This document shows, one piece after another, positions 2,379 through 59,713 of a DNA stretch of 64,000 nt. Made by a program: the position numbers and the translations under genes. Numbering within the stretch: the stretch's first letter is position 1; every line of letters begins with the position of its first letter. Under the pieces are notes generated by a model. That model had not been told where the DNA came from. It made no database searches and worked only from the letters and a program-made list of their open reading frames with translations. Source of the DNA: a virus (taxonomy: Duplodnaviria > Caudoviricetes); IMG/VR virus record IMGVR_UViG_3300037264_002561, positions 895 through 64,894 of that record, one strand, 5' to 3'.

Positions 2379-2393
2379 CGTAATCAGATTACG
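2379..2393. repeat. Dispersed palindrome copy 1 (CGTAATCAGATTACG)
   Basis: Perfect inverted repeat, extends to TCCGTAATC-A-GATTACGGA 2377-2395; intergenic. Confidence 0.9.
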
Positions 2394-2476
2394 GATCGGG
2401 GAGCCGGAGACACGGGCCCGTGGTAGGAGTCATCACGACTCCGGCCGCGGGCCTTCTCCTTGTGGAGACTGCGCAG

Positions 2477-5092
2477 ATGCCAGGTTCGATTTCCGAGGTC
2501 GCCAAGAACGGAGCCGGTGAGATGGCCTTGGGCCATTGCGGCTGCGAGTGCGAAGCCTGCGAGAGCTGCTCCAACGAGATGGAGAAGGCGGCGGGCCCGA
2601 AACGCAGCGAGCTCCCCGACTCCGACTTCGCCGTCATCCGGACGGTCGACGACAAGAAGCTCCGTCAGCTACGCATCGACGACGAGTCCCACGCCCGCAA
2701 CGCGCTGGCCCGGATGAACCAAGTTCTCCCGAAGCTCTCCTCTTCCCAGACAAGCGCGGTGCGTCGCAAGATCAAGGGGCGCTACCCCAAGATCGAGGTC
2801 ACGGGGGTGGAGAAGATCGACTGGAAGACCGCCATCCCTCGCCCCCTCTACGTGCGCCGCAACCTCCTCAATGCTGGCGAGTTCATCAAGTGGGCGAAGA
2901 GCCAGGGGTTCAAGTCCACTCTTCCGGCCGAAGAGATGCACGTCACCCTCGTCTACAGCAAGACGGCCGTGGACTGGGAACAGTTCACCGAACGGACCGA
3001 CATCGTCGGTCTCTACGCGGTCACCGAGAAGAGGAAGCTCACTCCTCTCGGGAAGGACGGCGCCATCGTCCTTCAGTTCCAGAGCTCCGAGCTATCAGTC
3101 CGCCACGAAGAGTTCGGTCGTGGGGGAGCCAGTTGGGACTACCCCAGCTTCCACCCGCACGTGACGGTTTCGTACAACGCCGAGGGCTTGGATCTTTCGA
3201 CGATCCCTCCGTACGCCGGCTACCTCGAGTTCGGGCCCGAGATCTTCGACGAGATCGACGATACTTGGAAGATGCGTGCCGTGGAGAAGTTCGAGCTCGC
3301 AAACCTCCAGAGCATCGAGGTCAGCAAGAGCGAGTTCAAGGGCCGGGATGCGGCGGTCGCCTGGGCCAAGTCCCAGAAGCTCGATACCCAGCGGCTCGTT
3401 GATCTTCACGACGTCTGGATCTTCATCCAGAAGGATCATGAGGGTGGTCGGCTGAAGGAACGGGTTCTGGATACGGGTCTCGTCGCCAAGTTCGAGCTTC
3501 GCGAGGCGGTCAACAAGATCATCCCCTTCGCCAAGGTGAACGCGGAGGAGCGAACGGTCGAGGGTGTCGTCTACGAGCCTTACGTCCCTGACTCCCAGGG
3601 CGACTGGATGACCCCCGAGGACATCCAGAAGGCTGCCTGGGGCTTCCTCGAGAAGATGCGTCAGCGCCAGGTGGACACCGACCACGATGAGGTCGCCAAG
3701 GACTGTTCCCTGGTCGAGTCCTTCATCGCTCCCCCGAACCATCCTCTCTACCCGGTCGGGGCATGGGTCGCCAAGACCAAGATCAACGCCGACGCTGTCT
3801 GGGATCGGGTCCTGAAGGGTGATCTGAACGGCTACAGCATGGCCGGGCAGGGAGAGCGTCTCGTGGGGGCCTCACCCCCCAATGGTCTCTTCACGAAAGC
3901 CGACCAGCCGGCGACGGTAGAAGACGTTTTGATCTCCAAGGCGGCCACCATGCAGAGGACCCACGGGCGTCTCCGCAAGGTGGATGTGCTCTTTCTCTCC
4001 CTCGTGAAGCGTGGGGCCAACGGGCACGACTTCATGTTCAAGAAGACCGACGAAGCCGATCAGGTGACGATCTTCAAGTCCCGAGACCTTCAACTCGCTT
4101 CCGGCGAGTGCCAGATCCAGTTCGACGGCCCCCTGACTCGCTTCTGGAAGTCCCTCAAGAGCACGTTCGGGAGCAATTCTCAAGAAACCCCCGGGTCGGT
4201 CGACGCCCCGGATACCCACGGAAAGGTGGATGCAGTGAGCATCGGCAAGCAGTTCGCCGGCCTCGTGGCGATGATCGCCAAGCAGTCGGCCGACGCGCAA
4301 CAGATCATCCTGGAGATGGCCAAGACTCCGGCCGTCGGACAGGTGGTGAAGCAGACCCCGGCCTTCCAGACCTTCCTGAGCAAGGTGAATCCCGCGGAGG
4401 TGGCGAAGCTCAGCAAGTTCGCCCAGGACGTCGGCTCCCTGACCCAGCTCCCCGACAACGGCGTGATCCTGCCGGCGGCCCAGGACTTCTTCGGGTTCGT
4501 CCAGGCCCTCGACGACCCGACCAAGTGGATGGGAGGCTCCCTCCCCGGCGGTGCCGACGGGGCCAGCGGCTCCATGGGCGGCTTCGGGAAGGGTGGTCTG
4601 CCCCCGTGGCTGGAGGGCAAGGACAAGGAAAAGGACAAGGAGAAGGACGTCAAGAAGGACGAGACCCCCGCTCCGGCCAATCCCATGGCCGGCTACGAGG
4701 CGGCTCTCCAGAAGGCCCTCGGCGTCGTGGTCGAGAAGTTCACCGCCGAGCTGGCTGGTGTGAAGGCCGAGCTCGCCACCGTGGCCAAGGCCGCCGGTCA
4801 GCCCACTCCTCCCCCCGCGGGAGGCCTGAGCGCCCAGGGCGTGACCCCGGCTCCGGCCACTCCCCCCGGACCCGGAGCGTTCGCCATCTTCCAGGACTCC
4901 GATGCTGAGGAGATGGTGAAGACCGACATCGCCAAGGGCTACTCCACCCCCATGAACCCCTTCGGTGGGGTGGCCGACGCCAGTGGCATCCTCACCGGTC
5001 CTCGCGATCCCAAGCCCCAGGCCACGGGGTACAACCCGGGCCTTCACTTCGACCAAGTCCTGACCGCCCGCCAGCAGCGCGGCGGTCGCTGA
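2477..5092 (+). CDS. Multidomain prohead protease/scaffold polyprotein: DUF6582-like + Acb1-like 2H phosphodiesterase + small domain + XkdF-like serine protease + scaffold
   Basis: XkdF-like motifs GVVYEP..PDSQGDWMTPEDIQKAA, VDTDHD, LVESFIAP, GDLNGYSMAG, LSLVKRGAN; two HVT motifs at 2939 and 3158; low-complexity/coiled C-terminus; directly upstream of capsid. Start ATG 2477 (GGAG RBS) or GTG 2420. Confidence 0.85.
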   Translation: MPGSISEVAKNGAGEMALGHCGCECEACESCSNEMEKAAGPKRSELPDSDFAVIRTVDDKKLRQLRIDDESHARNALARMNQVLPKLSSSQTSAVRRKIKGRYPKIEVTGVEKIDWKTAIPRPLYVRRNLLNAGEFIKWAKSQGFKSTLPAEEMHVTLVYSKTAVDWEQFTERTDIVGLYAVTEKRKLTPLGKDGAIVLQFQSSELSVRHEEFGRGGASWDYPSFHPHVTVSYNAEGLDLSTIPPYAGYLEFGPEIFDEIDDTWKMRAVEKFELANLQSIEVSKSEFKGRDAAVAWAKSQKLDTQRLVDLHDVWIFIQKDHEGGRLKERVLDTGLVAKFELREAVNKIIPFAKVNAEERTVEGVVYEPYVPDSQGDWMTPEDIQKAAWGFLEKMRQRQVDTDHDEVAKDCSLVESFIAPPNHPLYPVGAWVAKTKINADAVWDRVLKGDLNGYSMAGQGERLVGASPPNGLFTKADQPATVEDVLISKAATMQRTHGRLRKVDVLFLSLVKRGANGHDFMFKKTDEADQVTIFKSRDLQLASGECQIQFDGPLTRFWKSLKSTFGSNSQETPGSVDAPDTHGKVDAVSIGKQFAGLVAMIAKQSADAQQIILEMAKTPAVGQVVKQTPAFQTFLSKVNPAEVAKLSKFAQDVGSLTQLPDNGVILPAAQDFFGFVQALDDPTKWMGGSLPGGADGASGSMGGFGKGGLPPWLEGKDKEKDKEKDVKKDETPAPANPMAGYEAALQKALGVVVEKFTAELAGVKAELATVAKAAGQPTPPPAGGLSAQGVTPAPATPPGPGAFAIFQDSDAEEMVKTDIAKGYSTPMNPFGGVADASGILTGPRDPKPQATGYNPGLHFDQVLTARQQRGGR

Positions 5093-5123
5093 GCAACCGC
5101 CACAGGGAAGGAATCCAGACACC

Positions 5124-6263
5124 ATGGCGAACAACCTGATGCAGCAAGTCCTGTTCGAGAAGACCGCGATCGCGGTACAGGATCTCGCCGACGGTGCCGG
5201 CTACCTGATGCCGGTTCCCGCTCGGCGGTTCCTCCGCATCGGCCTCCCGGCCACCTCCATCCTCAAGATGGCCAGGCTCCACCCGATGTCCTCGCCCGAG
5301 GAGCACCTCGACAAGTTCCGCTGGCACGTGCGGGTCCTGCGGGCCGGCACCTCGGCCACGGCCCTGTCGGAAGTCGAGAAGCCCAAGCCCCAGCTCACCA
5401 AGCGGGTCCTCCAGGCCCGGCTGGTGAAGGCGCAGATCGATCTGCCCATCGAGACCCTCGAGGACAACATCGAGAAGCAGGGGTTCATGCAGACCCTCTT
5501 CGACGGCCTGGCTCCCCGGGTGGGGCTGGACTGGGAAGAGCTCCTGGTCAACGGCGACGTGGACAACGCCGTCGACGCCTACCTGGCGCTCTTCGACGGC
5601 ATCTACAAGCAGGCGAGCTCGATCATCTACAACCACTTGGGCGGCCCCGTGTCGCTCGACCTGTGGACCAAGATGGTCAAGCTCATGCCGCCCGAGTTCC
5701 AGAGCTCCCTGTTGGGTGGGGCGAAGTTCTTCACCCCGTTCAACCTCCAGCACGACTGGCGCGCCAACCTGGCCGGTCGCGTGGGGCCCGTGGGTGACTC
5801 CAACCTCCAGACCCTCAAGGAGGTCGGGGCGTTCGGCATCCCGATCGAGCCGGTCGTCAACGTGCGCGACGACGTGAGCTACAACGGGCTGGCGAACCAC
5901 GCGGACATCCTGCTCACCAACCCCGCAGCCAACATCGTCGTGGGCCTGTACGGCGGCCTCCGCCTGTTCATGGACCTCAACGTCGAGACCGGGGTCTGGA
6001 AGATCGTGCTCCGCTTCCGCACGGACGCGAAGCTGATCGAGCAGACCGCTGCCGTCAAGGGCCGCAACGTGCTGATCGGGGCCACCTCGCAGAGGGTTGG
6101 CGGTTCCTCGACCGCCCGCCTCCTGCCGGACAACCCCGCGGCCCTCTCGGTCCTGGGCTTCACCACTCCGGAGAACGATGCCGAGGGCTTCGACGATGGG
6201 ATCACCTCCTTCGTCCCCCCGGCGAACCTCGGCATCACTGCCCCGGTCAAGTTCACCCCCTGA
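5124..6263 (+). CDS. Major capsid protein (HK97 fold, XkdG-like)
   Basis: Follows protease/scaffold; 379 aa; ETLEDNIEK, DWEELLVNGD, FDGIYKQA; strongest codon bias in window. Confidence 0.9.
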   Translation: MANNLMQQVLFEKTAIAVQDLADGAGYLMPVPARRFLRIGLPATSILKMARLHPMSSPEEHLDKFRWHVRVLRAGTSATALSEVEKPKPQLTKRVLQARLVKAQIDLPIETLEDNIEKQGFMQTLFDGLAPRVGLDWEELLVNGDVDNAVDAYLALFDGIYKQASSIIYNHLGGPVSLDLWTKMVKLMPPEFQSSLLGGAKFFTPFNLQHDWRANLAGRVGPVGDSNLQTLKEVGAFGIPIEPVVNVRDDVSYNGLANHADILLTNPAANIVVGLYGGLRLFMDLNVETGVWKIVLRFRTDAKLIEQTAAVKGRNVLIGATSQRVGGSSTARLLPDNPAALSVLGFTTPENDAEGFDDGITSFVPPANLGITAPVKFTP

Positions 6264-6289
6264 TCGAGGCCTTCGAGAAGAACATCGAA

Positions 6290-6320
6290 CCCCCGGGCGA
6301 GAACAAACCTCGCCCGGGGG
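6290..6320 (+). terminator. 12-bp perfect GC stem-loop after capsid gene (partial terminator or mRNA stabiliser)
   Basis: CCCCCGGGCGAG-N7-CTCGCCCGGGGG; no U-tract. Confidence 0.65.
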
Positions 6321-6340
6321 ATAAGAGAGGGATCTGACAG

Positions 6341-7690: not shown

Positions 7691-7739
7691 TCCCCCTGAC
7701 CTGAACCTCATCTGACCTCATCACGATTGGAGAACTACG

Positions 7740-8354
7740 ATGCACCAGATCCACTGGCCTTTCGGCACCGACGACAAGTGCGCTGCCCGGATCCATCCCG
7801 GCAGCCCCAACTTCCCGACCCCCGACACCTTGGCTTACCCGAGCTTCACCCTCCGCAAGCATCCCGGGCAGGACAAGAACCCCAACCTGGGGTGGTACGA
7901 GGTCGACCGGAAGGCGTACGAGATCCTCTCGCAGGAGCGCCACCCACAGTCTGGGCTCCCGATCGTCCAGTTCACCCACAGCCCTCTTCAGCCCACCCGG
8001 CAGAGCCAGGCGCTCGCGGCCAAGAAGAAGACCGTCCGAGGGGCGATCGACCCGGAGTTCTTCGCGGAGGCCGTAGCTTCGGGAGTCCGCCAGGTCTTGC
8101 AGGAGATGGGGATCAAAGGGCCCGTTCCAGTGGCTCCCGAACCCCCGGCTCCGGCTGTCACCCCCCTCGTCGACCCCCCGGGAGAGACTCCCGGAGTGAA
8201 GGTCGTCGGAACCGAGGAAGAGACCTCGGAGGAAGGGGTCGAAGGAGGAGAGCCGGCTTCCAAGGAGGACCCCCCTCCGCCGGAAGATCCCAAGGGAGAA
8301 GCTCCGACCGAGACCCCCAAGGGAACCCGGCGGCTCCGTCTCCGGAAGGGATAG
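7740..8354 (+). CDS. Hypothetical protein with Pro/Glu-rich tail
   Basis: GGAGA RBS; good codon usage. Confidence 0.7.
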   Translation: MHQIHWPFGTDDKCAARIHPGSPNFPTPDTLAYPSFTLRKHPGQDKNPNLGWYEVDRKAYEILSQERHPQSGLPIVQFTHSPLQPTRQSQALAAKKKTVRGAIDPEFFAEAVASGVRQVLQEMGIKGPVPVAPEPPAPAVTPLVDPPGETPGVKVVGTEEETSEEGVEGGEPASKEDPPPPEDPKGEAPTETPKGTRRLRLRKG

Positions 8355-8357
8355 TCC

Positions 8358-10258: not shown

Positions 10259-11753
10259 GATGCGAACGAAGTTTCGTTCTAGGACTCTTGGATCGAAGCG
10301 TCCCGATTTCTTGTCTAACGCGCGAGCCGGAGCTCAAGCGAAGGTCCAGAAAGCCTTCGGTGAATCCATTGCTGGCATCCAGAAGAAGTATGGAATCCGT
10401 CTAGCTCTCGGCGAAGCCAAGCGCTATCAAGCACGTGGGCCAATGATGGCTAACATGCTGAAGAAGTATTCGACTGGCAAGCGAGCTCGATTCACAGCCC
10501 CCTCTTATGAGAAGATCAATCTTTCTCAGACACCCGCTTTCACAACTCCGGCCATGCGATTTGACATCGATGATCTCGATTTCCTTGGGAAGGCCATTGT
10601 GTCTGGCCCCCTCATGCCCAAGCTGATGAGCCGCGTCACGACCGATGGTCGAACGAAGTGGATCTTGAAAGAATTCGCGGCCCTAGCTCGGAACATGCCC
10701 AACTACACGGGCGGTTCGGTCGTCGCTGTCGCAGCTCTGGCTCATCGCATTCTCCAGCACAAGTTTCTGGTGGAGGGTGTTCCGCCTGGTCTCAGTCCAG
10801 CGACAGCTATGATTCTTCAGGCGAGATCGAAGTTCAACCCCGACGCTATCCCGCGCGCAAAGCTCAAAGAAGCGGGAGCAACCGAAGCCGAACTTACGGC
10901 ATTCGTCGGGGAGTTTTCGGTCAACTATGGTCAACGGATGGTTAGAGCTCGAAGGAGTGGAAAAGAACGGACTCGCTCCACCTTCACGAGCTTCTTTGGA
11001 TCGGGACTCCAATACGCCGGAACAGCAAAGGGGTGGGATCCCTCTCGTATGCCTCTCCACCGCCCCTTCGGAGGCGGGCATGAGGCCACCTCGAAGACTC
11101 CTCTCAATCTCCTCGAAGCCTTCCGGATCGGCTTTGATCGAGGCCCCCGGACCTTGTTGGCCGCTGAACGAAAAGAGCACCAAAAGGCTGGCTTGATAGG
11201 GAAAGGGCGTCTCGTCGCCAACATCACGGGAGCCTACATCGGCATTCCTCCCTACCACCGCAGCCGAGATTCGGGGGAACTCTTTTCGGAAATCGCTCGT
11301 CTTCAGGAAACGGGCTACTACATTCCCATCACCGAGGCCGTGTGGGGGTTCTTCCTCCTCCTGAGCAAGTCTTTCCCTCTTCTCCAACCCCTCAAGAAAG
11401 ACCGGATCGGAACGAACTTCGTCGTTCCTGCCCGCCCTTTCCTAGGTCCGACCTCTGAGACGCTGGCTGCTATGATCGGCTCCCATGAGTTCGCCGAAGC
11501 CATGGAAGTGCCCATCGTCACAGCCATCGCGGCCGTCAGTCCTGCGATGGCCAAAGCCATGCGCAGTCGCCCGGGAGTGTCCCCTATCCTCCCCACGAAC
11601 CCCCATCTTCCGGCGAGTGGAGCTTTGGCTGGTGCTCCGATGCCGTCGATCTCGGCGCGGATGGGCGGCGGTCCAGACCTACGTGCTCAGATTGCGGCGG
11701 GCGAGGGCATCTACCGCCTTCTGCGAAGCGCGATCATGGGGATGATGAGGTGA
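10242..11753 (+). CDS. Neck/tail-completion (virion morphogenesis, HK97 gp10-like) protein, enlarged
   Basis: IARLQETG...VPARPFLGP motif; basic; synteny; start uncertain. Confidence 0.6.
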   Translation: MMPVARMRTKFRSRTLGSKRPDFLSNARAGAQAKVQKAFGESIAGIQKKYGIRLALGEAKRYQARGPMMANMLKKYSTGKRARFTAPSYEKINLSQTPAFTTPAMRFDIDDLDFLGKAIVSGPLMPKLMSRVTTDGRTKWILKEFAALARNMPNYTGGSVVAVAALAHRILQHKFLVEGVPPGLSPATAMILQARSKFNPDAIPRAKLKEAGATEAELTAFVGEFSVNYGQRMVRARRSGKERTRSTFTSFFGSGLQYAGTAKGWDPSRMPLHRPFGGGHEATSKTPLNLLEAFRIGFDRGPRTLLAAERKEHQKAGLIGKGRLVANITGAYIGIPPYHRSRDSGELFSEIARLQETGYYIPITEAVWGFFLLLSKSFPLLQPLKKDRIGTNFVVPARPFLGPTSETLAAMIGSHEFAEAMEVPIVTAIAAVSPAMAKAMRSRPGVSPILPTNPHLPASGALAGAPMPSISARMGGGPDLRAQIAAGEGIYRLLRSAIMGMMR

Positions 11754-11757: not shown

Positions 11758-12582
11758 TTGAGCCACCAGTCCCCCAAGATCGTCCCCGTCGAGGGCCCCG
11801 AGGAGATCCTCGAGTTCGTGCTCTCACGGTTCGCGGTCGATCTCCAGAAGGGAATGCGCCTGGCCATGGATGATGACACCATCGTCGTCGCCATCACGAC
11901 CCATACCGAGTACTACGACCCGACTCTTGGGGGGATGGTAGCGGCCCCTCCCACAACGACTACGGCCGCGGCTGCGTCAGTCCCTTCGATCTCGGTCGGT
12001 CAGGACGTGGCGATCGTCTGGAACCGGATCCTCCACCGCAACCAGTACCAGAAGATCCCCAAGCGGTTCAAGAACACGAACAACGTCTTCGTGGATGGGT
12101 TCGAGCGGATGATGCCCGTGGAGTTCGTTGACCTCGAAGTGGGCATCCGCTTCTTCCACAGCAAGCCGAACCACTTGGTACGCTTCCAGCGGGCCTTCAT
12201 CCAGTACCTCGACATCTTCCCCTACCTGTTCATCCCCGACGACCTCACGAACCGTAATGGGATTACGGACGTCGATGAGCTCCAGGCTCTCCTCGAACAG
12301 TGGTGGGCCTACCCGATGCAGGATCTCGCCACTCCTGGGATCTTCGTCAGCCAGGAGCTCCCCATCGACAAGCGCGTCTTCTCTACCAAACTGCGAGCGA
12401 ATCGAAGTAACCTCTTCGCAGCAGAGTCGCACATCGAAATCATGGGTATCCCACTTCCAAACCAGCTATCGCTCGGGAATCGTGAGCTGTTCAACGCTTA
12501 CCGGATCCCGATCTCGAACAAGGAAGACGCCACCGAGAGCGAACTCTCGGTCGCCACGGAAGGGACGCTCGAAGATCCATGA
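11758..12582 (+). CDS. Probable tail terminator/sheath-capping protein
   Basis: GAGGTG RBS + TTG; position between neck and sheath. Confidence 0.5.
   Translation: MSHQSPKIVPVEGPEEILEFVLSRFAVDLQKGMRLAMDDDTIVVAITTHTEYYDPTLGGMVAAPPTTTTAAAASVPSISVGQDVAIVWNRILHRNQYQKIPKRFKNTNNVFVDGFERMMPVEFVDLEVGIRFFHSKPNHLVRFQRAFIQYLDIFPYLFIPDDLTNRNGITDVDELQALLEQWWAYPMQDLATPGIFVSQELPIDKRVFSTKLRANRSNLFAAESHIEIMGIPLPNQLSLGNRELFNAYRIPISNKEDATESELSVATEGTLEDP
12253..12267. repeat. Dispersed palindrome copy 2 (CGTAATGGGATTACG, 1 mismatch)
   Basis: Intragenic, read as RNGIT. Confidence 0.75.
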
Positions 12583-16210: not shown

Positions 16211-16243
16211 CCCCGGCTCCGTAACCTGATTACGGAGCCGGGG
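16211..16243. repeat. Dispersed palindrome copy 3 within a 14-bp stem-loop after tube gene
   Basis: CCCCGGCTCCGTAA-CCTGA-TTACGGAGCCGGGG; core 16220-16234. Confidence 0.85.
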
Positions 16244-20418: not shown

Positions 20419-20748
20419 ATGGCTTTCCAGTCCCGTATGTCCCGGTACAACGGAGCCGAAGTCATCGCGGACGAGAAGTTGCTCCGTAATCGGATTACGA
20501 TCTTCATCAGCGGCTCTCTCTCATTCCCCTACGAGGACGTCCCAGAGAATCTCCGCTACATCGTTCGGCAGGGCGATCGTATCGACCACTTGGCGACCGC
20601 CTTTTACGGTAACCCTCGTCTTTGGTGGGTTCTCGTCGAGTTCCAGAAAAATCCCCTCCAGAACCCCTGGGTCCTCAAACCGGGCCTCGAGCTCTTTATT
20701 CCCTCCTACACCTACATTGCTGCCAAGATCCTCCGGGGGGCCTCGTGA
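20419..20748 (+). CDS. LysM/gpX-like baseplate protein
   Basis: YIVRQGDRIDHLATAFYGNPRLWW...PGLELFIP. Confidence 0.85.
   Translation: MAFQSRMSRYNGAEVIADEKLLRNRITIFISGSLSFPYEDVPENLRYIVRQGDRIDHLATAFYGNPRLWWVLVEFQKNPLQNPWVLKPGLELFIPSYTYIAAKILRGAS
20485..20499. repeat. Dispersed palindrome copy 4 (CGTAATCGGATTACG)
   Basis: Perfect; intragenic, read as RNRIT. Confidence 0.85.
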
Positions 20749-32646: not shown

Positions 32647-33023
32647 TCGGCCGCGAGGGTGGGGTCAAAAACCTCACCCTCGCGCTTTCCAAGACCCTGG
32701 TCCGGGTTCTACACTTGGACCTGCGGGACTACGAGGATGCTACGTTCCTCAAGTTCGCAGCACTCGTCATCAATCGCCTCCTGCTCAAGCTGAAATCTCG
32801 CTACGAGATCCAGGACCGAGAACGGCACGGATCGACCCCACAAGGTCGCCGTGCCGTTCGTGTTCTGGAGGGAGAGATCGTAGAAGATGCCCGTCGGCTG
32901 TACGGAGGCTATCGGGCCTGGAGGGTCAAGACACGTGAGTTCACGGAAGCTGAAGCTGCTGATGCTATGCGGGCTCTCGTGGATGAGTGTGTTCGGATGT
33001 TCTCCGAGGGAGGCTCCCCGTAA
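32640..33023 (+). CDS. Predicted -1 frameshift extension of holin-like gene
   Basis: G-GGA-AAA at 32634-32640; -1 frame open to TAA 33021-33023; the frame's own TTG (32715) has no RBS. Confidence 0.55.
   Translation, partial: RLIGREGGVKNLTLALSKTLVRVLHLDLRDYEDATFLKFAALVINRLLLKLKSRYEIQDRERHGSTPQGRRAVRVLEGEIVEDARRLYGGYRAWRVKTREFTEAEAADAMRALVDECVRMFSEGGSP
32652..32684 (+). other. 14-bp stem-loop (frameshift stimulator and/or terminator)
   Basis: CGCGAGGGTGGGGT-CAAAA-ACCTCACCCTCGCG, one G-U pair. Confidence 0.7.
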
Positions 33024-33390
33024 TCCGATTACGGCGAAGCTAGTCGAGCCGACGATCGAGAGCACCATCGGTCACTTCGAGGGCGAGAAGCTCCACAACT
33101 CGACCGAGAAGACCTACCGGCTTCCCAACATCGGGGCCTTCGCCAGCTACTTTCCTCGTACCAGATCGATTGCCAGTGGCCTCCTCGTCGAGCTCTACGA
33201 CAAGAAGCAGAAGCGAGGCCTCTTCAACTGGTTCAAGTACGACCTCCACGTGTCCGAGCAACGGCTTGGGCTGGCGGTTGGGCGCAAGATCTTCGATCCG
33301 ATCGACGGAACGGCGAGCATCGTCTACTCCCGAGACTTCGATCGGCGACAACATACCTGGGGCCTGGCGTTCAGCCTGGTCAAGTTCTAG
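32935..33390 (+). CDS. Putative lipoprotein with C-terminal amphipathic beta strands
   Basis: GGAGG RBS + GTG; MSSRKLKLLMLCGLSWMSVFG-C lipobox-like; ends TWGLAFSLVKF. Confidence 0.6.
   Translation: MSSRKLKLLMLCGLSWMSVFGCSPREAPRNPITAKLVEPTIESTIGHFEGEKLHNSTEKTYRLPNIGAFASYFPRTRSIASGLLVELYDKKQKRGLFNWFKYDLHVSEQRLGLAVGRKIFDPIDGTASIVYSRDFDRRQHTWGLAFSLVKF
33019..33033. repeat. Dispersed palindrome copy 5 (CGTAATCCGATTACG)
   Basis: Perfect; supplies TAA stop of frameshift ORF and is read as RNPIT in lipoprotein. Confidence 0.88.
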
Positions 33391-46597: not shown

Positions 46598-46888
46598 ATG
46601 ACTTCGGAGCAGATCGACGCCATCCTCGCCCTGGTGAAAGCGGGCGGCATCTACGCCGCCGTCGTCATCCTCTTGATCGTCGTCGTTGTCCTCGGGAAGC
46701 TCTTCCTCGATCAGGTGAAGAGAGCCGACGGCCTTCAGGATCTCCGGGTCAAGGACTCCCAAGACACGAGCGCCCTGATTCTCAAGGAAATCAAAGACCT
46801 CACCGGGGCCCTTACCAAGCTCACCGCCAAGCTCGACACCTTCCGCCCACCCCGCGCCAGTGGAAAGGATGCTGAGAGTGGATCTTAG
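46598..46888 (+). CDS. Membrane protein, BhlA/UviB-like holin candidate
   Basis: One strong TM helix followed by coiled coil; AAGGA RBS. Confidence 0.6.
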   Translation: MTSEQIDAILALVKAGGIYAAVVILLIVVVVLGKLFLDQVKRADGLQDLRVKDSQDTSALILKEIKDLTGALTKLTAKLDTFRPPRASGKDAESGS

Positions 46889-47123
46889 CAAACTCCTTCT
46901 GACCGACGTTCGAGATCTGTTCCGGAAAGAGACTCGGGAAGAGCGACAAGTCGAACTCCAAGACCCAGAGGCCATGAAACAGGAGCTCTTGCGCAAGACC
47001 TCGGAGATGATCCAGGCGTCGACTCGTGAAGTCGAGGAGCTGAACTCCTACCTGGACGAGAACGAGATCGAGTTCATCGCCAGCGAAGAACTCCTCGGCG
47101 AGGACGAGTCCGACCCCCCGTAA
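46878..47123 (+). CDS. Small acidic helical protein (last plus-strand gene)
   Basis: Overlaps previous gene; start uncertain (46860/46869/46878). Confidence 0.55.
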   Translation: MDLSKLLLTDVRDLFRKETREERQVELQDPEAMKQELLRKTSEMIQASTREVEELNSYLDENEIEFIASEELLGEDESDPP

Positions 47124-47133
47124 TCGGATTACG
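47119..47133. repeat. Dispersed palindrome copy 6 at the convergence of late and replication regions
   Basis: Perfect; contains TAA stops of both convergent genes (47121-47123 plus, 47129-47131 minus). Confidence 0.9.
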
Positions 47134-47338
47134 GCTTCTGATCGACCACGATGGAGTGTAGTGGAGCTGCATCCACCATCACTTGACCGATCGCCGCGAG
47201 GACGAGAAGAGTCACGCGGATCTTCTTCCCGCACTCATCTTCGGGACAGGTCTCGACGAAGGTATCCCCATCCTTGGGGGATTCCTCGTCGTACTCGATC
47301 TTGGTCTGGCAGTGGGGGCAGTAGAAGGTGATCGTCAT
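47129..47338 (-). CDS. Small zinc-ribbon protein
   Basis: CPHC...CPEDEC; GAGG RBS. Confidence 0.7.
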   Translation of the reverse strand: MTITFYCPHCQTKIEYDEESPKDGDTFVETCPEDECGKKIRVTLLVLAAIGQVMVDAAPLHSIVVDQKP

Positions 47339-47347: not shown

Positions 47348-47653
47348 TCAGTACATTCCCTCGCGGCTCGTGACGGCGATGACGACGAACTTCGGACCGA
47401 TCCAGTACATCTTGCCCAGGTCGAGCCCACGGGGGTAGGAGACGGGGAGATTGAAGAGGGTGTAGCGGGGCTTCCCTTGCTTCTGCACCTCTTCCCCGAG
47501 ATCCCTGATGTGCTTCTGCGCGATGAGTGCCCTGGCGTCGATCGGGCTCATGGACAGTCCGCTCAGAGTGGCCCCTCGGAGTGTGGCGTCGCCCCACTGC
47601 TTTTGGCACTCCTCGATCGTGAGTGGTGTCGGTAGTTCTTTCTTGTCGCTCAT
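47348..47653 (-). CDS. Hypothetical protein
   Basis: Overlap with primase stop; GAGGTG RBS. Confidence 0.65.
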   Translation of the reverse strand: MSDKKELPTPLTIEECQKQWGDATLRGATLSGLSMSPIDARALIAQKHIRDLGEEVQKQGKPRYTLFNLPVSYPRGLDLGKMYWIGPKFVVIAVTSREGMY

Positions 47654-48798: not shown

Positions 48799-48823
48799 GG
48801 CTCCGTAATCCGATTACGGAGCC
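48799..48823. repeat. Dispersed palindrome copy 7, extended to 25 bp
   Basis: GGCTCCGTAATC-C-GATTACGGAGCC; contains mazG stop and the GGAG RBS of primase. Confidence 0.9.
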
Positions 48824-49413
48824 TTCGCGGCCTCAACGGCTCGACGTTCGGCTTCGACGTCCCGATCGATAGCGGCCTTCTGGGTGAAGTTCCCCTCGTA
48901 GCGGGTGTCGAGCTTGGTGTGGTTCAGCTTCCAGATCTCTTCCCAAGTGAACCCCAGTTCGCCCACAATCCGATTGGCCACCGCGAGGGATCGGACGACG
49001 GAGTCGAACATCTCCTTGAGGTTTTTGCTGCTCCCTATGTCCTCGTAGCGGTCCAGCTTCATCAAGCAGAATCCCGAACGGTGGTAGAGCTCGTGAACCA
49101 TGCCGATCGGATTACCCAAGGCTGGATTGATCCCGATCCAGTAGTGAGGGGAGATGTGGTCCTCCAGGAAGCTCTTCTCGTCCGTTCCTTTCATGGTGGC
49201 GTACCAGGCGAAGAACAGGGAGACGAACCAGGCGAAATCGCCAAGCTCCATGAGTAGGTCCGTCCGGTTGATCGCCACGTCGTAGTGGCGCTTCTTGAAG
49301 ATCCCTAGGATCTCGGCCGCTTCTTCGGCCAGGCCCTCGATAAAGTGAGCCGGTAAGAATGCCTTGGGGTTGCAGAAGTGACGGACGGATGCCAAGTACT
49401 CGACCCATTTCAT
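48814..49413 (-). CDS. mazG: MazG-like nucleotide pyrophosphohydrolase
   Basis: GLAEEAAEI...KK, ELGDFAWF, N..KL..RY. Confidence 0.85.
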   Translation of the reverse strand: MKWVEYLASVRHFCNPKAFLPAHFIEGLAEEAAEILGIFKKRHYDVAINRTDLLMELGDFAWFVSLFFAWYATMKGTDEKSFLEDHISPHYWIGINPALGNPIGMVHELYHRSGFCLMKLDRYEDIGSSKNLKEMFDSVVRSLAVANRIVGELGFTWEEIWKLNHTKLDTRYEGNFTQKAAIDRDVEAERRAVEAAKAP

Positions 49414-53716: not shown

Positions 53717-53717
53717 G

Positions 53718-54704: not shown

Positions 54705-54705
54705 G

Positions 54706-56804: not shown

Positions 56805-56805
56805 G

Positions 56806-58140
56806 TTAGACCTTGAACTTTGCCTTGCAGGTGTCTTGGAACTCGACCGCGAAGGGGGCGTAGGGACACGTCTTGGTCGTCTTGAGCTTGTCGGCCAAGT
56901 TAATCTTGGCGATCGCTATCGCTTGCTTTCCGGTTGCTACCCGGGCTGCGGCCGTCTCGGCATTCCGTTGGGCCTGTTCCAGTCCACAAAGAAGCCCTTG
57001 CTGATCGCTCGTCCGCATAACAAGGTCTTGTAGTTCCCCGAGAGCCGACAAGGCCCCCGAACAACTCCCGGCTCGGATGCGTGATTGAATGGAGGCCAGG
57101 GAGCGTTCAGCTCGAAGGAAGCGATCTGGCAGATCGAGCTGAATCCTCGAACGGAGAACCTCGAGCTGGGAGTGTTCCTCACGTAGTCGACGAACGTCGG
57201 CGAGGCGGCCCAGCTTTTCACGAAGTCCCTCCAGAGCTCGGAGCCGTTCGGCAACTCCGCGAAGTAGGGAGCGATTGTGGTCGAGACGGACTTGCTTGGC
57301 TCGGGCATCATCGTAGGCGGCTCGCAACTCTGGCAAGCCATCGAACGCCATCGTTCGAGCATGGAGGTCTCGGACTCGTTCATAGGTTCTTGCGACTCCA
57401 TCGAGAAGTCGTCGTGTCTCAAGAACCTGTCCTTCGCCACGTTCTACCTCCTTGGCGATCCCCTCGACCTCTTCCAAGAGGGACGAATAGTTCGTCTCCC
57501 CGCGGATCAAGTCGAGTTCGCTCTCAGTCTCCCTCTTGAGAGCTTCGAGTGTTTTGGCCTCTCCCTCGAGCCGTTCCTTCGTGATCTTGTGGACTCGGCC
57601 CCCTTCATCGAAGAGGTGCTGGTCCGTAACCGAGCCAAGGATTTTGACACGAGTGGCCCCTGTGTATCCAGCCCCGATCAAGAAAGGGCCGCGGTCGGGG
57701 ATCTGTTCGCTCAGGTTGAGTGAGAACTCCGTCTTGTCCTCGAAGACAATGGGCTGCATCGCGAAGATCGCTTCGACCTGGGGAGGGAGGTTCTGCTTGA
57801 GGGAGGGAAAGGGCGTCGTCTTGCCCCCCCGGGTGACTTCGTAGAACTGGCTCCTCGGTACCAGAACACCCTTTTCATCCTCGGTCCGTTGTCGGGCGAT
57901 CGTTACGACCTCCCCATCGTCCAGCTCGAAGTCCCCCTCAACGCGGCACGGCTCCTTGCTCAAGCGAGCCCAGGTACTCACCGTCATGGGGGTGAAGTAG
58001 ATCAAACTCTCCAAACCCCGCAGAAGAGCTGTCTTACCGACGTCGTTGTCGCCCTGGACGCCTGTGACGCCGTCGTGAAGAAAGATCTCGGTGTCCTTGT
58101 GGGACTGGAAGTTCTTGAACCTAAGCCGGCGGATTCGCAC
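56806..58140 (-). CDS. sbcC: SbcC/Rad50-like ATPase, N-terminal half
   Basis: FKNFQSH, GDNDVGKTALLRGL Walker A, Q-loop region, long coiled coil ending KTCPY; GGAGG RBS + GTG. Confidence 0.85.
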   Translation of the reverse strand: MRIRRLRFKNFQSHKDTEIFLHDGVTGVQGDNDVGKTALLRGLESLIYFTPMTVSTWARLSKEPCRVEGDFELDDGEVVTIARQRTEDEKGVLVPRSQFYEVTRGGKTTPFPSLKQNLPPQVEAIFAMQPIVFEDKTEFSLNLSEQIPDRGPFLIGAGYTGATRVKILGSVTDQHLFDEGGRVHKITKERLEGEAKTLEALKRETESELDLIRGETNYSSLLEEVEGIAKEVERGEGQVLETRRLLDGVARTYERVRDLHARTMAFDGLPELRAAYDDARAKQVRLDHNRSLLRGVAERLRALEGLREKLGRLADVRRLREEHSQLEVLRSRIQLDLPDRFLRAERSLASIQSRIRAGSCSGALSALGELQDLVMRTSDQQGLLCGLEQAQRNAETAAARVATGKQAIAIAKINLADKLKTTKTCPYAPFAVEFQDTCKAKFKV

Positions 58141-58495
58141 TGAACCCCTCCGAGAGTTTGGATAGCCGGGCGCCCTCGACCATGATGAGGCGCAAGAGAG
58201 CCCAGGCCCCCTCGCTGAAACGGTCGAAGCTGGCTTCCAACTCTTTGGCTGGAAGGTCGCCACCATTCTTGGCTTTTCGCGAGAGGAAGACGACCATCCT
58301 GAACCCAGTCGACAACATATCGAGGAGCTGAAGAGCCTCCTCGGAGTCCATCCTCTCGAGAACCTTCCCATCGAACCCGAGAGACTTCGCAAGCTCTCCG
58401 ATCCGAATGGATCCGAGGATGATGTTGTGGAAGTCCTGGATACAGCTCACGTCGACCGTCTTCACGATTGGAGAGGGGGGTCCTTCACTCGACAT
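58121..58495 (-). CDS. Hypothetical helical protein
   Basis: Fills recA-sbcC gap with short overlaps. Confidence 0.55.
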   Translation of the reverse strand: MSSEGPPSPIVKTVDVSCIQDFHNIILGSIRIGELAKSLGFDGKVLERMDSEEALQLLDMLSTGFRMVVFLSRKAKNGGDLPAKELEASFDRFSEGAWALLRLIMVEGARLSKLSEGFSANPPA

Positions 58496-59669
58496 CGACG
58501 TCCCCATTCACCGCGAACTCCGTCGGGTCGACTTCGGCCGTGAGGTTCTCAGTCTCCAGGGTGGCGTCCTTGGACTGGATGGCGTCCTGGATCTTGTCCA
58601 GGAGCTCCTTGTTCTCGCGCAGGAGCGTTCGGCACGCTTCCTTGCCCTGCCCCAAACGCTCTCCAGCGAAGCCGTAGAAGGAGCCAGACTGTTCGATGAC
58701 CCCCATCCGGAGGGCTTCCTCGAACACGGCCACCGCGATGCTGATCCCCTCACCGAAGATGATCGGCAAGTCCGCAGCCCCGAACTGGGGGCCGATCTTG
58801 CTCTTGATGACCTTGATCTTGGTCATCATGCCGATCATCTCGTCGCCCTGAAGGATCTTACGACCCTTGTAGGCCTTCAGCCGTAGGCCATACGCATGAC
58901 GGAGCCGCTTGCCTCCCGGGGTGTCCGTGGGGTCTTCCCAGGCTTGGGCATTCATCTTGGCCCGCACCTGATTGATCGCCACGAGGGCGCAGCCGCGCTT
59001 CCAGATGGGGCTGGCGGTCTTCATCAGCAAGCGGTTGATGAGATTGACTGAGTCGGCCCGGATCTGAGTCTCGTCCATCGGCTTGTCGATGTTCTGCTTG
59101 GAGTTCATCACCCCGAACGAATCGATCACGATGATGTCCGCGACGGAGGCCCAAGTGCGAGCCATCTCGGCCGCCTCATCTCCGTCATGAGCGATGAAGT
59201 AGTCCCACGTCCCGAGGTTCACGCCGATCTTGCGGGCGTACTCTGAGTCGAGACTCTTCTCCACGTCGATGAAGACGGCATGGGCATCGAAGGTTCGTTG
59301 CGCGTTGGCGATGAACCCCAGGCAGAAGGTCGTCTTTCCTGACGACTCCTCTCCCGAGATCTCTGAAACCATGCCACGTGGGATGCCTCCCCGGGCCGGA
59401 TTCATCTTGGCGATCTGCGCGTCGAGGGCGTGGAACCCTGTCGGGATGACTCGGATCTCGGGCATCGGATGAGCGAACCCACCGATGGCATCCGCTCCGA
59501 ACTTCTTGGCGATGTAGTTGCGAGCCGCCTCCGCCGCCGGGGAGTTCAGCTTCTCCCCGAGCGACATCTCAGCGAAGCTCTTGGGAGCCGTCATCTTGCG
59601 AGCCTTCGCCTTGCGCGGCTCCTTGCGAGCTGTCGTGACCGTTGGTGTTTCACCGTCGATGAGCGGCAT
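58485..59669 (-). CDS. recA: RecA/UvsX recombinase
   Basis: GGIPRG, GEESSGKTT, FIDVE, IVIDS, INQVR, TPGG. Confidence 0.95.
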   Translation of the reverse strand: MPLIDGETPTVTTARKEPRKAKARKMTAPKSFAEMSLGEKLNSPAAEAARNYIAKKFGADAIGGFAHPMPEIRVIPTGFHALDAQIAKMNPARGGIPRGMVSEISGEESSGKTTFCLGFIANAQRTFDAHAVFIDVEKSLDSEYARKIGVNLGTWDYFIAHDGDEAAEMARTWASVADIIVIDSFGVMNSKQNIDKPMDETQIRADSVNLINRLLMKTASPIWKRGCALVAINQVRAKMNAQAWEDPTDTPGGKRLRHAYGLRLKAYKGRKILQGDEMIGMMTKIKVIKSKIGPQFGAADLPIIFGEGISIAVAVFEEALRMGVIEQSGSFYGFAGERLGQGKEACRTLLRENKELLDKIQDAIQSKDATLETENLTAEVDPTEFAVNGDVDVE

Positions 59670-59684
59670 CGTTCCTCCTCGTCA

Positions 59685-59694
59685 GCACTATAGG
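59685..59694 (-). promoter_or_regulatory. CCTATAGTGC motif (putative recA -10), copy 2
   Basis: Intergenic, just upstream of GAGGAGG RBS. Confidence 0.55.
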
Positions 59695-59698
59695 ACCA

Positions 59699-59713
59699 CG
59701 TAATCAGATTACG
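59699..59713. repeat. Dispersed palindrome copy 8, in recA promoter region
   Basis: Perfect CGTAATCAGATTACG between terminator hairpin and -10-like motif. Confidence 0.9.

Follow-up and report, generated by a model that had tools for sequence, protein, structure and literature searches.

A perfect 15-base palindrome is dispersed over the genome of a contractile-tailed phage; its copies are non-random in occurrence and lie predominantly at gene boundaries, and across the clade each related phage has a private word of its own. With an even chance of being right, we consider the word a double-stranded DNA recognition site of a symmetric, putatively dimeric, sequence-specific protein that would mark transcription units. 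The window referred to throughout is the analysed stretch of 64 kb from a phage record that is incomplete (estimated about 61%).

A palindromic word in eight dispersed copies

Perfect copies of the 15-base CGTAATCNGATTACG are present at positions 2379, 20485, 33019, 47119, 48804 and 59699 of the window, and at ≤2 mismatches eight matches are obtained, the additional two carrying one mismatch each (12253, CGTAATGGGATTACG; 16220, CGTAACCTGATTACG). In 100 dinucleotide shuffles the perfect word never occurs and matches at ≤2 mismatches amount to a mean of 0.09 with a maximum of 1, which bears out the eight dispersed copies described by an earlier sequence-only reading of this DNA. The whole record of 64,894 bases has the same eight copies and none of the reversed-pattern control, a copy number to be read as eight in 64.9 kb of an approximately 61%-complete record with approximately 39% of the genome missing. 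Equally, when the window is searched de novo for repeated palindromes (arms of 6 bases, gap 0-4, three copies or more), this family alone is identified.

The word is built from two 7-base arms around a one-base centre, CCGTAATC-N-GATTACGG. The arms are invariant in six of the eight copies, with a single change in each of the other two, and the central base reads, from copy 1 to copy 8, A, G, T, G, C, G, C, A; invariant arms combined with a free centre are typical of a dyad-symmetric site, as which the word may be considered. Core and flanks together give CCGTAATCNGATTACGG, with C at -1 and G at +1 in 0.88 of half-sites. This one-base flank is the part of a formerly proposed extended consensus that stands, while the longer GCTC...GAGC is weak (0.44-0.62 per position).

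Six of the eight copies are intergenic or overlap stop codons and two are situated deep in genes, compared with a non-coding share of approximately 6.5% of the DNA by our own gene calls. Copy 1 (2379..2393; perfect, centre A) belongs to the leader of the head operon, with a stop at 2326 before it and, after it, the GTG at 2420 of an ORF for Acb1 and the prohead protease (2420-5092), which is followed by the capsid gene (5124-6263). It is located 19 nt 3' of a -10-like TATCTT (2354-2359), preceded at a spacer of 18 by TTGAAC (2330-2335), hexamers that were read by eye and fall under the scan threshold. Copy 8 (59699..59713; perfect, centre A) is found 29 nt upstream of the recA ATG at 59669 (recA 58485-59669, minus strand) and 6 nt upstream of a -10-like TATAGT (59692-59687, minus strand), equally read by eye. 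The positions of these two copies, previously assigned to promoter regions, hold; the promoters themselves consist of -10-like hexamers seen by eye, and consensus scans list neither a promoter nor a terminator at any of the eight sites. With the word downstream of the hexamer at 2379 and upstream of it at 59699, its placement is variable as for dispersed operators, to which it might be compared by analogy.

Three further copies, at 33019, 47119 and 48804, overlap TAA stop codons, as had been noted before. Copy 5 (33019..33033; perfect, centre C) gives the stop (33021-33023) of ORF 32715-33023 and simultaneously covers the region of codons 13-17 of the overlapping next ORF (about 32983-33390). 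Copy 6 (47119..47133; perfect, centre G) marks the border between the structural module on the plus strand and the replication module on the minus strand; the plus-strand ORF 46860-47123 and the minus-strand ORF 47129-47338 converge on it, and both have their TAA stops within it. A perfect core at 48804-48818 constitutes copy 7, which widens to a 25-base palindrome GGCTC...GAGCC (48799..48823). It carries the stop of a MazG-like ORF of the minus strand (48814-49413), and its GGAG arm precedes the primase ATG (48795, likewise minus strand) by 5 nt. In total, four ORFs end on a TAA inside the word, which counts against its reading as a DNA site. The copy after the tube gene is likewise where it had been placed, copy 3 (core 16220-16234; one mismatch) being situated between the stop of the tail tube gene (16200) and the start of the baseplate hub gene (16277) with its core within a near-perfect palindrome of 33 bases (16211..16243). 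The intragenic copies are copy 2 (12253..12267; one mismatch), which covers codons 166-170 of ORF 11758-12582 and is read R-N-G-I-T, and copy 4 (20485..20499; perfect, centre G), at codons 23-27 of a gp25-like baseplate wedge ORF (20419-20748). That the coding copies at 12253, 20485 and 33019 are all read as R-N-x-I-T was correctly seen, and is unremarkable because just two frames of the word are open, this one among them.

Private palindromes in related phages

The exact word occurs in 35 other viral contigs, in a single copy each and never in multiple copies. Lack of conservation in relatives together with lack of a binding protein had been named beforehand as speaking against a functional element; it is found for the exact word, but the class of element is conserved. 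Capsid relatives possess each their own dispersed palindrome of 14-22 bp; four related myovirus records have theirs in 7 to 21 copies, namely 7 in 42 kb of G001, 9 perfect and 5 one-mismatch copies in 102 kb of G002, 21 in 114 kb of G003 and 21 in 89 kb of G005, with reversed-pattern or shuffle controls near 0. Among 109 loci of capsid relatives, each at least 8 kb in length, 16 have a palindrome in at least four copies versus 2 in Markov-simulated copies.

In the record studied here (G000) and in its nearest relative G001, with 46% capsid identity, the leader of the head operon and the tube/hub junction each contain a site, with differing words. In the G001 leader a -10-like TATCTT is followed by the phage's own palindrome and then by a conserved block, while the tube/hub site combines its own word with a different 7-base stem extension that is still complementary, which argues for a selected stem-loop at that junction. 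Word evolution thus appears concerted, with the sequence swapped and the two positions kept; because both positions have been kept across approximately 50% protein divergence while the word was replaced, selection on the sites and on a matching trans factor would be needed.

The same word in Chloroflexota heptamer repeats

All five Chloroflexota genomes tested contain the exact word in 8-22 copies per genome, where it forms the centre of inverted arrays of the heptamer CCGTRAY. Such (CCGTRAY)n arrays give hundreds of matches per genome in the Chloroflexota genomes G006 and G008. In G008 the arms of the inverted heptamer arrays centred on the word measure about 8-50 bases, and the copies of the word, 22/22 intergenic and 0/22 between divergent genes, are part of repeat hairpins at gene 3' ends and do not stand before particular genes; these gene-end hairpin arrays look like RNA or terminator elements. 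A LexA/SOS box, to which the recA position might point, would be expected to match the LexA motif of the host lineage and to stand before host SOS genes. The objection that the phage motif might be an ordinary host operator holds as far as abundance in Chloroflexota is concerned, and fails on the setting, which is the centre of a heptamer hairpin rather than an ordinary operator. The window, on the other hand, is without inverted heptamer-array hairpins and has the central inverted pair alone in common with them; tandem heptamers are not above chance (5 matches at ≤2 mismatches versus 5.0 expected) and isolated heptamers show no excess (3 outside the sites versus 2.3 expected in total). The identity of the word with the heptamer centre suggests a link to the host or, alternatively, mimicry of a host gene-end hairpin. 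A repeat family of this kind in Chloroflexota does not appear as a topic in the titles and abstract beginnings of the literature searched.

Double-stranded DNA versus RNA as target

The reading as a dimer site is favoured because the arms are invariant and the centre free, variants are symmetric, flanks are unpaired, two of the eight copies alone form exceptional hairpins and the word changes in concert. Variants are distributed symmetrically in G000-G003 and G005, the counts per 5' half/3' half in the myovirus group being 2/2, 2/3, 9/7, 9/8 and 16/9. Complementarity beyond the conserved core is found in none of G002, G003, G004, G005 and the Agrobacterium phage JP1, the paired fraction dropping to 0.1-0.4.

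A less probable alternative is punctuation at the RNA level, whereby stem-loops at cistron ends or in leaders would act as terminators, attenuators, 3'-end stabilisers, processing sites or sites for RNA-binding proteins, with the shared sequence serving recognition at a hairpin apex that copies the gene-end hairpins of the host. Copies 33019, 47119 and 48804 abut or contain stops and 16220 follows the tube gene, the usual position of an attenuator. The copies at 16220 and 48804 fold as RNA at -29.1 kcal/mol (z -6.75) and -21.3 kcal/mol (z -3.73), respectively, strong hairpins that count against the DNA-site reading. Consistent with RNA punctuation are also the different, yet complementary tube/hub extension of G001, a G002 copy after the capsid gene (position 11662 of locus L043) that is extended and then followed by TTTT, and the word as centre of the intergenic G008 gene-end arrays. 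However, four of the eight window copies are not more stably folded than shuffled sequence (z -0.03 to -0.68), with two more borderline (z about -2); the folds at copy 4 (z -0.41) and copy 8 (z -0.68) bypass the palindrome altogether and the hairpin of copy 6 is weak (z -0.03). No T-run follows any of the eight copies on the 3' side, terminator scans list no copy, the stable GC-rich stem-loop with T-run of an intrinsic terminator is found at none of them, and Rfam 15 at gathering score gives 0 matches in the window. Furthermore, two copies lie deep in coding sequence, and the recA region already has a separate GC-rich hairpin (59750-59719) after the stop of the upstream ORF. Loops need no palindromy, and the conserved centres in the relatives are palindromic nonetheless; in the larger relatives the flanks pair no more than background. 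Equally, G-U tolerance on the sense strand is not seen in G002, where 2/5 one-mismatch variants give G-U without bias and the 20-mer at ≤3 mismatches gives 5 G-U versus 3 C-A.

A phage-specific promoter or leader element, representing a start signal or the first transcribed bases and read by a phage-modified polymerase or an activator, is improbable for the window, although JP1 and the Rhodobacter phage RcTiptonus, both remote relatives by capsid, have a polar word of this kind. Their variants are all in the downstream half, with 22-31 C-A versus 0-1 G-U mismatches; an ACAT centre occurs 11 times and its complement 0 times, and start codons mostly follow the end of the word at 16-18 nt, a -10-like hexamer often standing directly before the word. 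In the window copy 1 stands after and copy 8 before such a hexamer, but distances to start codons are inconstant (8, 26, 29 and 42 nt), one copy lies between convergent stops with no gene start, two are intragenic, variants are symmetric in the window's own myovirus group and a perfect palindrome would fire both ways. Least probable of all are selfish or recombination-linked micro-elements, that is hot spots of insertion or recombination, or leftovers of host heptamer repeats, devoid of a regulatory role, which would account for a G001 site at a junction that in the window is a plain gene overlap, for the word being equal to a unit of an expanding host repeat family and for the deletions and insertions bounded by the Cluster O repeats of mycobacteriophages (excerpts of PMC4351075), but not for two positions kept over approximately 50% protein divergence with the word replaced, a window without heptamer arrays or an excess of isolated heptamers and the absence of visible target duplications or common flanks around the copies.

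A candidate mechanism and the search for its protein

According to the preferred reading as a DNA site, a putative dimeric protein would bind CCGTAATC-N-GATTACGG in double-stranded form, and sites would be kept chiefly at gene and operon boundaries, namely the head-operon leader, the tube/hub junction, the convergence of the modules and the upstream regions of primase and recA. There, as an operator or a roadblock to elongation, the bound protein might set transcription units or insulate them, similar to dispersed phage operators. Protein binding, DNA rather than RNA as target and the effect of binding are what we infer here.

A recognisable DNA-binding domain is present in none of the 71 window ORFs scanned, and a lenient re-scan with E up to 0.5 at 28 ORF coordinates, nearly all among the 71, shows no DNA-binding family. 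A basic 101-aa ORF adjoins two of the sites; it has three remote relatives of its own length and one weak match in a 472-aa protein, no relatives in the related phages and no match to a DNA-binding fold. The ParB_N domain (PF02195), for which a search had been recommended, is absent from the window ORFs and from all five related records G001-G005, two of which are at least 93% complete, so that a reading as partition site is unsupported; annotated ParB-like genes are present in JP1 and RcTiptonus. Neither an integrase nor a repressor was found among the 71 ORFs, with approximately 39% of the genome missing, and the phage appears lytic in the part of the genome seen; therefore, whole-genome silencing of the stoperator type would have no obvious use. 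From the initial proposal, in which a dimeric protein would use the site as operator, roadblock or genome organiser, the dimeric site is favoured by symmetry, folds and concerted word change, while the window ORFs scanned yield no recognisable candidate for its protein and the partition function has no support. The missing part of the genome might encode the binding factor; alternatively, the factor might be a host protein, from a Chloroflexota-like host that uses the same heptamer.

In a wider and rather speculative extension, phages of approximately 100 kb of this capsid lineage might form a clade in which private palindromes at transcription-unit boundaries co-evolve with a factor of no recognised DNA-binding family; the word in the window would then derive from the apex of a host heptamer hairpin or have arrived at it by convergence, thereby plugging the phage genes into a Chloroflexota system reading CCGTAAT repeats, a host system undescribed as far as the searches went.

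Significance

If a protein indeed reads these words, it would regulate or organise whole genomes in a large phage group that is mostly uncultured, and its specificity would have been re-set many times, providing a natural series for the joint change of a site set and its reader. The cultured distant capsid relatives RcTiptonus and JP1, with their own polar dispersed words, turn this into a bench-testable question; 'palindrom' and 'motif' do not occur in the RcTiptonus genome paper, and neither the name nor the word of JP1 was found in the literature searched. Equally, the identity with the Chloroflexota heptamer offers a host lead for an orphan sediment phage and highlights an abundant repeat family in Chloroflexota.

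Comparison with known systems

Palindromes of 13-17 bp, in about 10-70 copies, make up the operators of the ParB, KorB and Noc type as well as the conserved inverted repeats of the Streptomyces phage phiC31; they are located at variable distance from promoters and also within genes, and one dimeric protein acts through them on transcription or genome organisation. With ParB_N found neither in the window ORFs nor in G001-G005, a grouping of the word with ParB/KorB/Noc-type sites has no support, and no phiC31-type repressor is seen in the window. Stoperators are many identical short sites, mostly in short intergenic spaces, that are bound by one phage protein which blocks elongation, and their sequence co-evolves with this protein between related phages. 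They are asymmetric, bound by a monomer, oriented with transcription and found in temperate phages with an identified repressor. Numerous identical short sites across the genome are what the window shares with the stoperators of Cluster A mycobacteriophages of the L5/Bxb1 type (excerpts of PMC9283540 and PMC6550527). In contrast, the word of the window is a perfect palindrome without polarity, with symmetric variants in G000-G003 and G005, and is not assigned to the asymmetric, oriented stoperators; neither repressor nor integrase was seen, and the phage looks lytic in the part of the genome at issue.

The abundant intergenic TAACTGA direct repeats of marine Beggiatoaceae (excerpts of PMC4679880) resemble the Chloroflexota (CCGTRAY)n repeats as an intergenic 7-base repeat family. 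The unit is different, and the word-bearing Chloroflexota arrays are inverted pairs that form long hairpins at gene 3' ends, of which the phage has the minimal inverted pair only and never an array.

By analogy, the closest precedent is the 17-bp dyad repeat of Cluster O mycobacteriophages (PMC4351075), Corndog and its kin, which has a 3-base spacer and is present in 34 copies in Corndog; a separate abstract gives 31 copies in the 72.7 kb of Ryadel. Dimeric regulatory proteins were proposed by the Cluster O authors with no binding protein known, and the repeat was reported to be absent from host genomes. Both sets of sites possess two invariant 7-base inverted arms with a short variable centre, and in both copies are found in short intergenic gaps, near the 5' ends of genes and inside genes, most of them not at promoters. 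They differ in sequence and in spacer length (1 here versus 3 there), and the density in Cluster O is approximately 4-fold higher. The Cluster O phages are siphoviruses of Mycobacterium, which has no match among the 215 capsid matches, and represent an unrelated capsid lineage. Finally, whereas the Cluster O word is reported absent from hosts, the word of the window is abundant in some Chloroflexota genomes.

Gene content of the phage record and its repeated word

The window spans bases 895-64894 of a 64,894-base IMG/VR record that is classed as linear and estimated to be 61% complete, with a G+C content of 59-66%. Scans of 71 window ORFs against Pfam and PHROGs assign to the plus strand, the genes of which extend to 47123, a portal gene, an 890-residue ORF combining Acb1 (anti-CBASS) and an XkdF-type prohead protease (2420-5092), a capsid protein (phrog_1623), a T4 gp19-like tube protein, a baseplate hub, a tape measure, a gp25-like wedge and a Baseplate_J protein; a sheath-sized ORF is located on the same strand. 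The minus-strand genes, from 47129 to the window end, encode a DnaG-type primase, a MazG-like protein, a dNMP kinase, an SbcD-like phosphoesterase, a DnaB-type helicase, an SbcC-like ATPase and RecA. The structural gene content identifies the record as a contractile-tailed phage. Neither an integrase nor a repressor is seen among the 71 ORFs (Pfam, PHROGs) and, as terminase and polymerase are missing as well, the record is clearly partial. The window contains no tRNA genes and no Rfam matches. In the ORF at 2420-5092, which lies directly upstream of the capsid gene, the Acb1 phosphodiesterase domain occupies residues 142-284 (E 3e-37) and the XkdF-type prohead serine protease domain residues 370-480 (E 2e-24), a fusion suggesting that a counter-defence enzyme is processed by the head protease or delivered together with it. 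Two minus-strand ORFs upstream of recA, 59758-61008 (416 residues) and 61037-63412 (791 residues), have no Pfam, PHROG or PDB-sequence match.

The dispersed palindrome described in the sequence-only reading is real, and the finding reaches beyond what was seen there. A pattern search recovers six perfect copies of CGTAATCNGATTACG in the window (2379, 20485, 33019, 47119, 48804 and 59699), none being present in any of 100 dinucleotide-preserving shuffles. With up to two mismatches allowed, two one-mismatch copies at 12253 and 16220 bring the number to the claimed eight (shuffle mean 0.09, maximum 1), and the same eight are found in the whole 64,894-base record, with a reversed-pattern control of 0. 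In a scan for palindromes with 6-base arms, gaps of 0-4 and at least three copies, this word is the sole repeated family. One flanking base on each side (C/G) is conserved in 0.88 of the half-sites, so that the word is really a 17-mer, CCGTAATC-N-GATTACGG; the longer GCTC/GAGC extension once proposed for the consensus is weak by flank conservation.

Positions of the copies

Non-coding DNA makes up about 6.5% of the record by crude gene calls, yet six of the eight copies touch such DNA or stop codons. Copy 2379 is located in the 93-base gap upstream of the protease-capsid operon, copy 59699 lies 29 nt before the recA ATG, and copy 16220 forms the core of a 33-base near-perfect palindrome in the gap between the tube and hub genes. 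Copy 47119 sits at the exact convergence point of the two gene modules and provides the TAA of both last ORFs, copy 33019 provides the TAA of one ORF together with codons 13-17 of the next, and copy 48804 provides the TAA of the MazG-like ORF with its GGAG arm 5 nt before the primase ATG. The three stop-codon overlaps and the copy after the tube gene thus stand as first read. Copies 12253 (codons 166-170) and 20485 (codons 23-27) lie within ORFs. That the coding copies are always read as R-N-x-I-T likewise holds for all three translated copies; the word contains TAA in one frame and, if its centre is T, TGA in another, so that the choice of frame is limited anyway. Just upstream of copy 59699 and separate from the palindrome, the stop of ORF 59758-61008 is followed by a GC-rich hairpin (59719-59750, minus strand; a 9-base loop between arms of 11-12 bases) that resembles an ordinary terminator stem lacking a T-run.

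Related phages and their private words

A single copy of the exact word is present in each of 35 other viral contigs, so no other record of that viral collection has it as a repeat, and megablast against isolated phages gives no match. A capsid search identifies relatives of 46-67% identity, with proteins of 61-67% identity on long contigs, among them P0002 on one of 118,846 bases and P0005 on one of 76,009 bases, and a capsid profile retrieved 80 viral and 80 metagenome loci plus one 2.1-kb contig binned with a Gemmatimonadota metagenome-assembled genome (MAG). Among 111 loci of at least 8 kb, 17 possess a palindrome family of at least three copies, each a different word, where three pairs among the 17 represent the same contig from two collections; at least four copies are found in 16 of 109 N-free loci versus 2 of 109 first-order Markov simulations.

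Four related myovirus records share the structural genes and recA of the window (BLASTP) and constitute its group. The nearest, G001 (46% capsid identity, 34% complete, 42 kb), carries seven copies of a TCGTAACCGGTTACGA type word; G002 (93% complete, 102 kb) carries GTGTCTCCTCGAGGAGACAC, with nine perfect and five one-mismatch copies of its 14-base core; G003 (100% complete, 114 kb) has 21 perfect cores of GTGTTCACCCGGGTGAACAC; and G005 (83% complete, 89 kb) has 21 copies of a 12-base core with flanks extending to about 18 bases. Reversed-pattern controls for the whole related records are 0, and the copies in all four are likewise enriched at gene boundaries. What relatives conserve is therefore not the exact word, which no other record of the viral collection repeats, but the possession of a palindrome of their own, and the window word is one case of a lineage-wide habit of using a private palindromic word at gene boundaries.

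Two of the seven G001 sites, one before the protease ORF and one in the tube/hub gap, are at junctions also occupied in the window, the others being at positions not in common. Alignment of the head leaders, the stretches upstream of the protease-capsid operon, shows for both phages a conserved -10-like TATCTT, about 20 nt, the phage's own palindrome, a strongly conserved block and the start codon. A position kept while its word is replaced in step with all other sites is expected if a trans-acting reader changed specificity: the binding protein would acquire a new preference and the sites would follow genome-wide, with positions kept. As far as the literature search reached, this clade-wide concerted turnover of the word is new. 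Window bases 2394-2425 and bases ~8000-8035 of the G001 locus L041 (GGGGAGCCGGAGACACGGGCCCG...) are almost identical, though the proteins are only 32-46% identical, and the conserved leader stretch between palindrome and protease start has a 12-base palindrome of its own. Among the genes of G003 (L203-L208) are those for DpdA (7-deazaguanine DNA modification), a Mom-like protein, an ArdC-like anti-restriction protein and three DNA methyltransferases, one C5 and two N6/N4. Its 21 palindromes include a cluster of three that spans about 1 kb at the terminase large-subunit gene and upstream of it, and a pair spaced 49 bases apart in front of a DEAD/ResIII helicase gene.

A protein site on DNA or an RNA hairpin

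The best-supported mechanism, held with middling confidence, is that of a putative symmetric protein site on DNA acting at transcription-unit boundaries. Its main rival, that the word acts as an RNA stem-loop, is doubtful as the overall reading, but draws on folding of the 45-nt sense RNAs around each copy, in which 16220 (-29.1 kcal/mol, z -6.75 against shuffles) and 48804 (-21.3 kcal/mol, z -3.73) are exceptional. Furthermore, the tube/hub hairpin of G001 has an extension that differs from that of the window yet is complementary, and the G002 copy after the capsid gene is extended and then followed by TTTT. These two strong hairpins and the extensions in G001 and G002 indicate that some copies, at least those at tube/hub and primase, probably also work as stem-loops. 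Several tests nevertheless lean towards a site on DNA. Four of the eight copies fold no differently from their shuffles (z -0.03 to -0.68) and another two lie at the borderline (z about -2); the best folds of 20485 and 59699 leave the palindrome unused. Equally, the complementary fraction of the flanks beyond the core is at background (~0.1-0.4) in G002, G003, G004 (a further related record), G005 and the cultured phage JP1, so that a longer stem is not under general selection. In the even-length words of relatives a conserved centre is itself palindromic (CCGG, TCGA, ACGT, CGCG), and centres that are not conserved, that of the window word included, vary freely. With sites oriented by local transcription, deviations from the consensus are spread equally over both halves across the myovirus group (2/2, 2/3, 9/7, 9/8 and 16/9; G000, the phage of the window, with G001-G003 and G005). 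The recurrent one-base variant of G002 would give G-U on the sense strand in two of five cases and C-A in three, and its 20-mer at up to three mismatches gives five G-U and three C-A.

That the word is a start signal is improbable. Read by eye, a -10-like TATCTT precedes copy 2379 by 19 nt and has TTGAAC 18 nt upstream of it, and a -10-like TATAGT lies 6 nt downstream of copy 59699, but consensus scans report neither a promoter nor a terminator at any of the eight copies; of the two promoter-region copies proposed from the sequence, the placement upstream of the head operon and of recA stands, and the promoters themselves are backed by the eye-read hexamers and not by the scans. A non-functional word or one of selfish origin is likewise improbable.

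Search for the binding protein

Under the preferred reading of a protein site on DNA, a reader would be encoded by phage or host. No DNA-binding family is found among the 71 window ORFs (Pfam, PHROGs), nor in a lenient Pfam scan (E up to 0.5) of 28 ORF coordinates nearly all among the 71, and PDB sequence searches of four window ORFs without assignment return no match. A ParB-type partition site, one of the functions entertained in the sequence-only reading, is rejected: PF02195 (ParB_N) is absent from the window ORFs and from all five related records (G001-G005), and the search for repressor genes advised there ends equally empty in the 71 window ORFs. In the complete G003, scans of 118 ORFs with Pfam and 59 with PHROGs provide one weak HTH_31 match, in a 515-residue protein.

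One candidate was a basic 101-residue ORF (47348-47653, minus strand) between copies 47119 and 48804. A word-indexed search gives no relative; an exhaustive search gives three remote relatives of similar length and a further weak match in a 472-aa protein (E 6e-4, four short stretches). It has no counterpart in G001-G005 or JP1, and its best model (pLDDT 82.6; the other four 41-58) has no PDB match at E <= 0.001. With few remote relatives, none in related phages and no fold match, it was dropped. A conserved protein of ~200 residues beside PolB in G002, G003 and G005 was equally set aside as a regulator, an atlas search pointing weakly to a UvsY-like protein. The gene for the binding protein may lie in the missing ~39% of the genome.

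Heptamer arrays in Chloroflexota and the host

A scan for the 17-mer with one genome per prokaryote species gave at least 121 loci, with 80 matches listed, of which about 40 belong to Chloroflexota assemblies (Anaerolineae, Ardenticatenaceae and unclassified), often as several contigs of one assembly. The exact 15-mer is present in five Chloroflexota genomes with 21, 13, 22, 8 and 8 copies (reversed control 0). In one of these genomes, G008, each of the 22 copies stands, as read by eye, at the centre of a pair of inverted CCGTRAY heptamer runs with arms of ~8-50 bases, and by crude ORF calls all 22 are intergenic, eight between convergent, 14 between tandem and none between divergent ORFs. Triple-heptamer matches number 790 in G008 and 450 in a second genome, G006 (controls 0). 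Where arrays bear the phage word, they are arranged as inverted pairs at the 3' ends of genes (e.g. L348-L366). Three CCGTRAY units contain TAA in every frame, so that an inverted pair would block translation in each of the six frames, and it would fold into a long hairpin. By titles and abstract openings, no report of this heptamer-repeat family in Chloroflexota was found in the literature; heptamer repeats are described for Beggiatoaceae (PMC4679880).

In the phage, heptamer runs do not exceed chance (five loose matches versus 5.0 expected), and three isolated heptamers accompany the 13 inside the eight sites (total expectation 2.3). As the phage is devoid of heptamer arrays, its word matches exactly the minimal inverted pair that forms the apex of the repeat-built gene-end hairpin, a hairpin that is abundant in one bacterial phylum. 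This identity is new as far as the literature search reached. The host may be such a Chloroflexota with a heptamer-reading factor that the phage would use; the word may be a mimic of host gene-end signals; or the identity may be a coincidence. The capsid profile has no match in the five Chloroflexota genomes, the phage RecA shares 29-33% identity with its counterparts in Chloroflexota, Gemmatimonadota and Actinomycetota alike, and the G001 word is absent from the five genomes. The closest capsid relative among the retrieved loci (66% identity), a 2,109-base contig in a Gemmatimonadota MAG bin (L121), is a weak, possibly spurious host hint at odds with the Chloroflexota lead. Among the matches listed, the JP1 and G003 words occur in bacterial genomes as scattered single copies, and a few short contigs in Myxococcota bins with two to three copies of the G003 word look like phage fragments. 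Since these two words are not multi-copy in the listed bacterial chromosomes, host repeats cannot generally explain the clade-wide habit.

Eight of the 80 listed matches come from one Prevotella MAG (contigs L230, L232, L233, L239, L258, L261, L275 and L280), in which the 17-mer lies within tandem palindromes of the CCGTAAY-N3-RTTACGG type spaced by ~5-7 bases, a different repeat architecture on the same half-site. In several Actinomycetota (Nocardia, Streptomyces; L285, L290, L294 and L317), a single 17-mer followed by TAATAATC and a further conserved stretch looks like the conserved operator of an ordinary regulator.

Repeated words of other phages

Repeated words are also found in two cultured, distant capsid relatives. 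Agrobacterium phage JP1, a siphovirus by annotation with 35% capsid identity, has 33 perfect copies of TTGCAA-N4-TTGCAA and 50 with up to two mismatches, in the form TTGCAAAC(G/A)TT(T/C)(G/A)CAA (L202 and L209), and Rhodobacter phage RcTiptonus (L612) has a related word of TGCAATCGATTGCA type, with nine perfect 12-base cores in its first 50 kb, seven of the full 14-base form. These words are polar: the upstream half hardly varies and every common variant falls in the downstream half, one of the variants combines two neighbouring changes that abolish pairing, and the centre is ACAT 11 times and its complement never. By the annotation, intergenic copies of JP1 mostly begin 1-6 nt past a stop codon and leave 16-18 nt to the next start; in both phages the word usually follows just after a TAA stop, at this distance of 16-18 nt from the start that comes next. 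They look like leader or start-proximal elements and may differ in kind from the window word, so they are not counted as support for its reading as a symmetric site. A term search of the RcTiptonus paper (PMC8601537) finds 'palindrom', 'inverted repeat' and 'motif' absent, and neither 'Agrobacterium phage JP1' nor its word was found in the literature.

The closest precedent is provided by the Cluster O mycobacteriophages, in which a 17-bp word, made of two 7-base inverted arms around a 3-base centre, is described in over 30 copies at intergenic and coding positions, its function not established; the authors suggest dimeric regulators but consider a role as promoter doubtful (PMC4351075). The copy count is given again in a later genome note (PMC6439249), and no functional follow-up was found in the literature. 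The window word thus belongs, as does by its description that of Cluster O, to a kind of element that is already known but unexplained, the dispersed dyad word.
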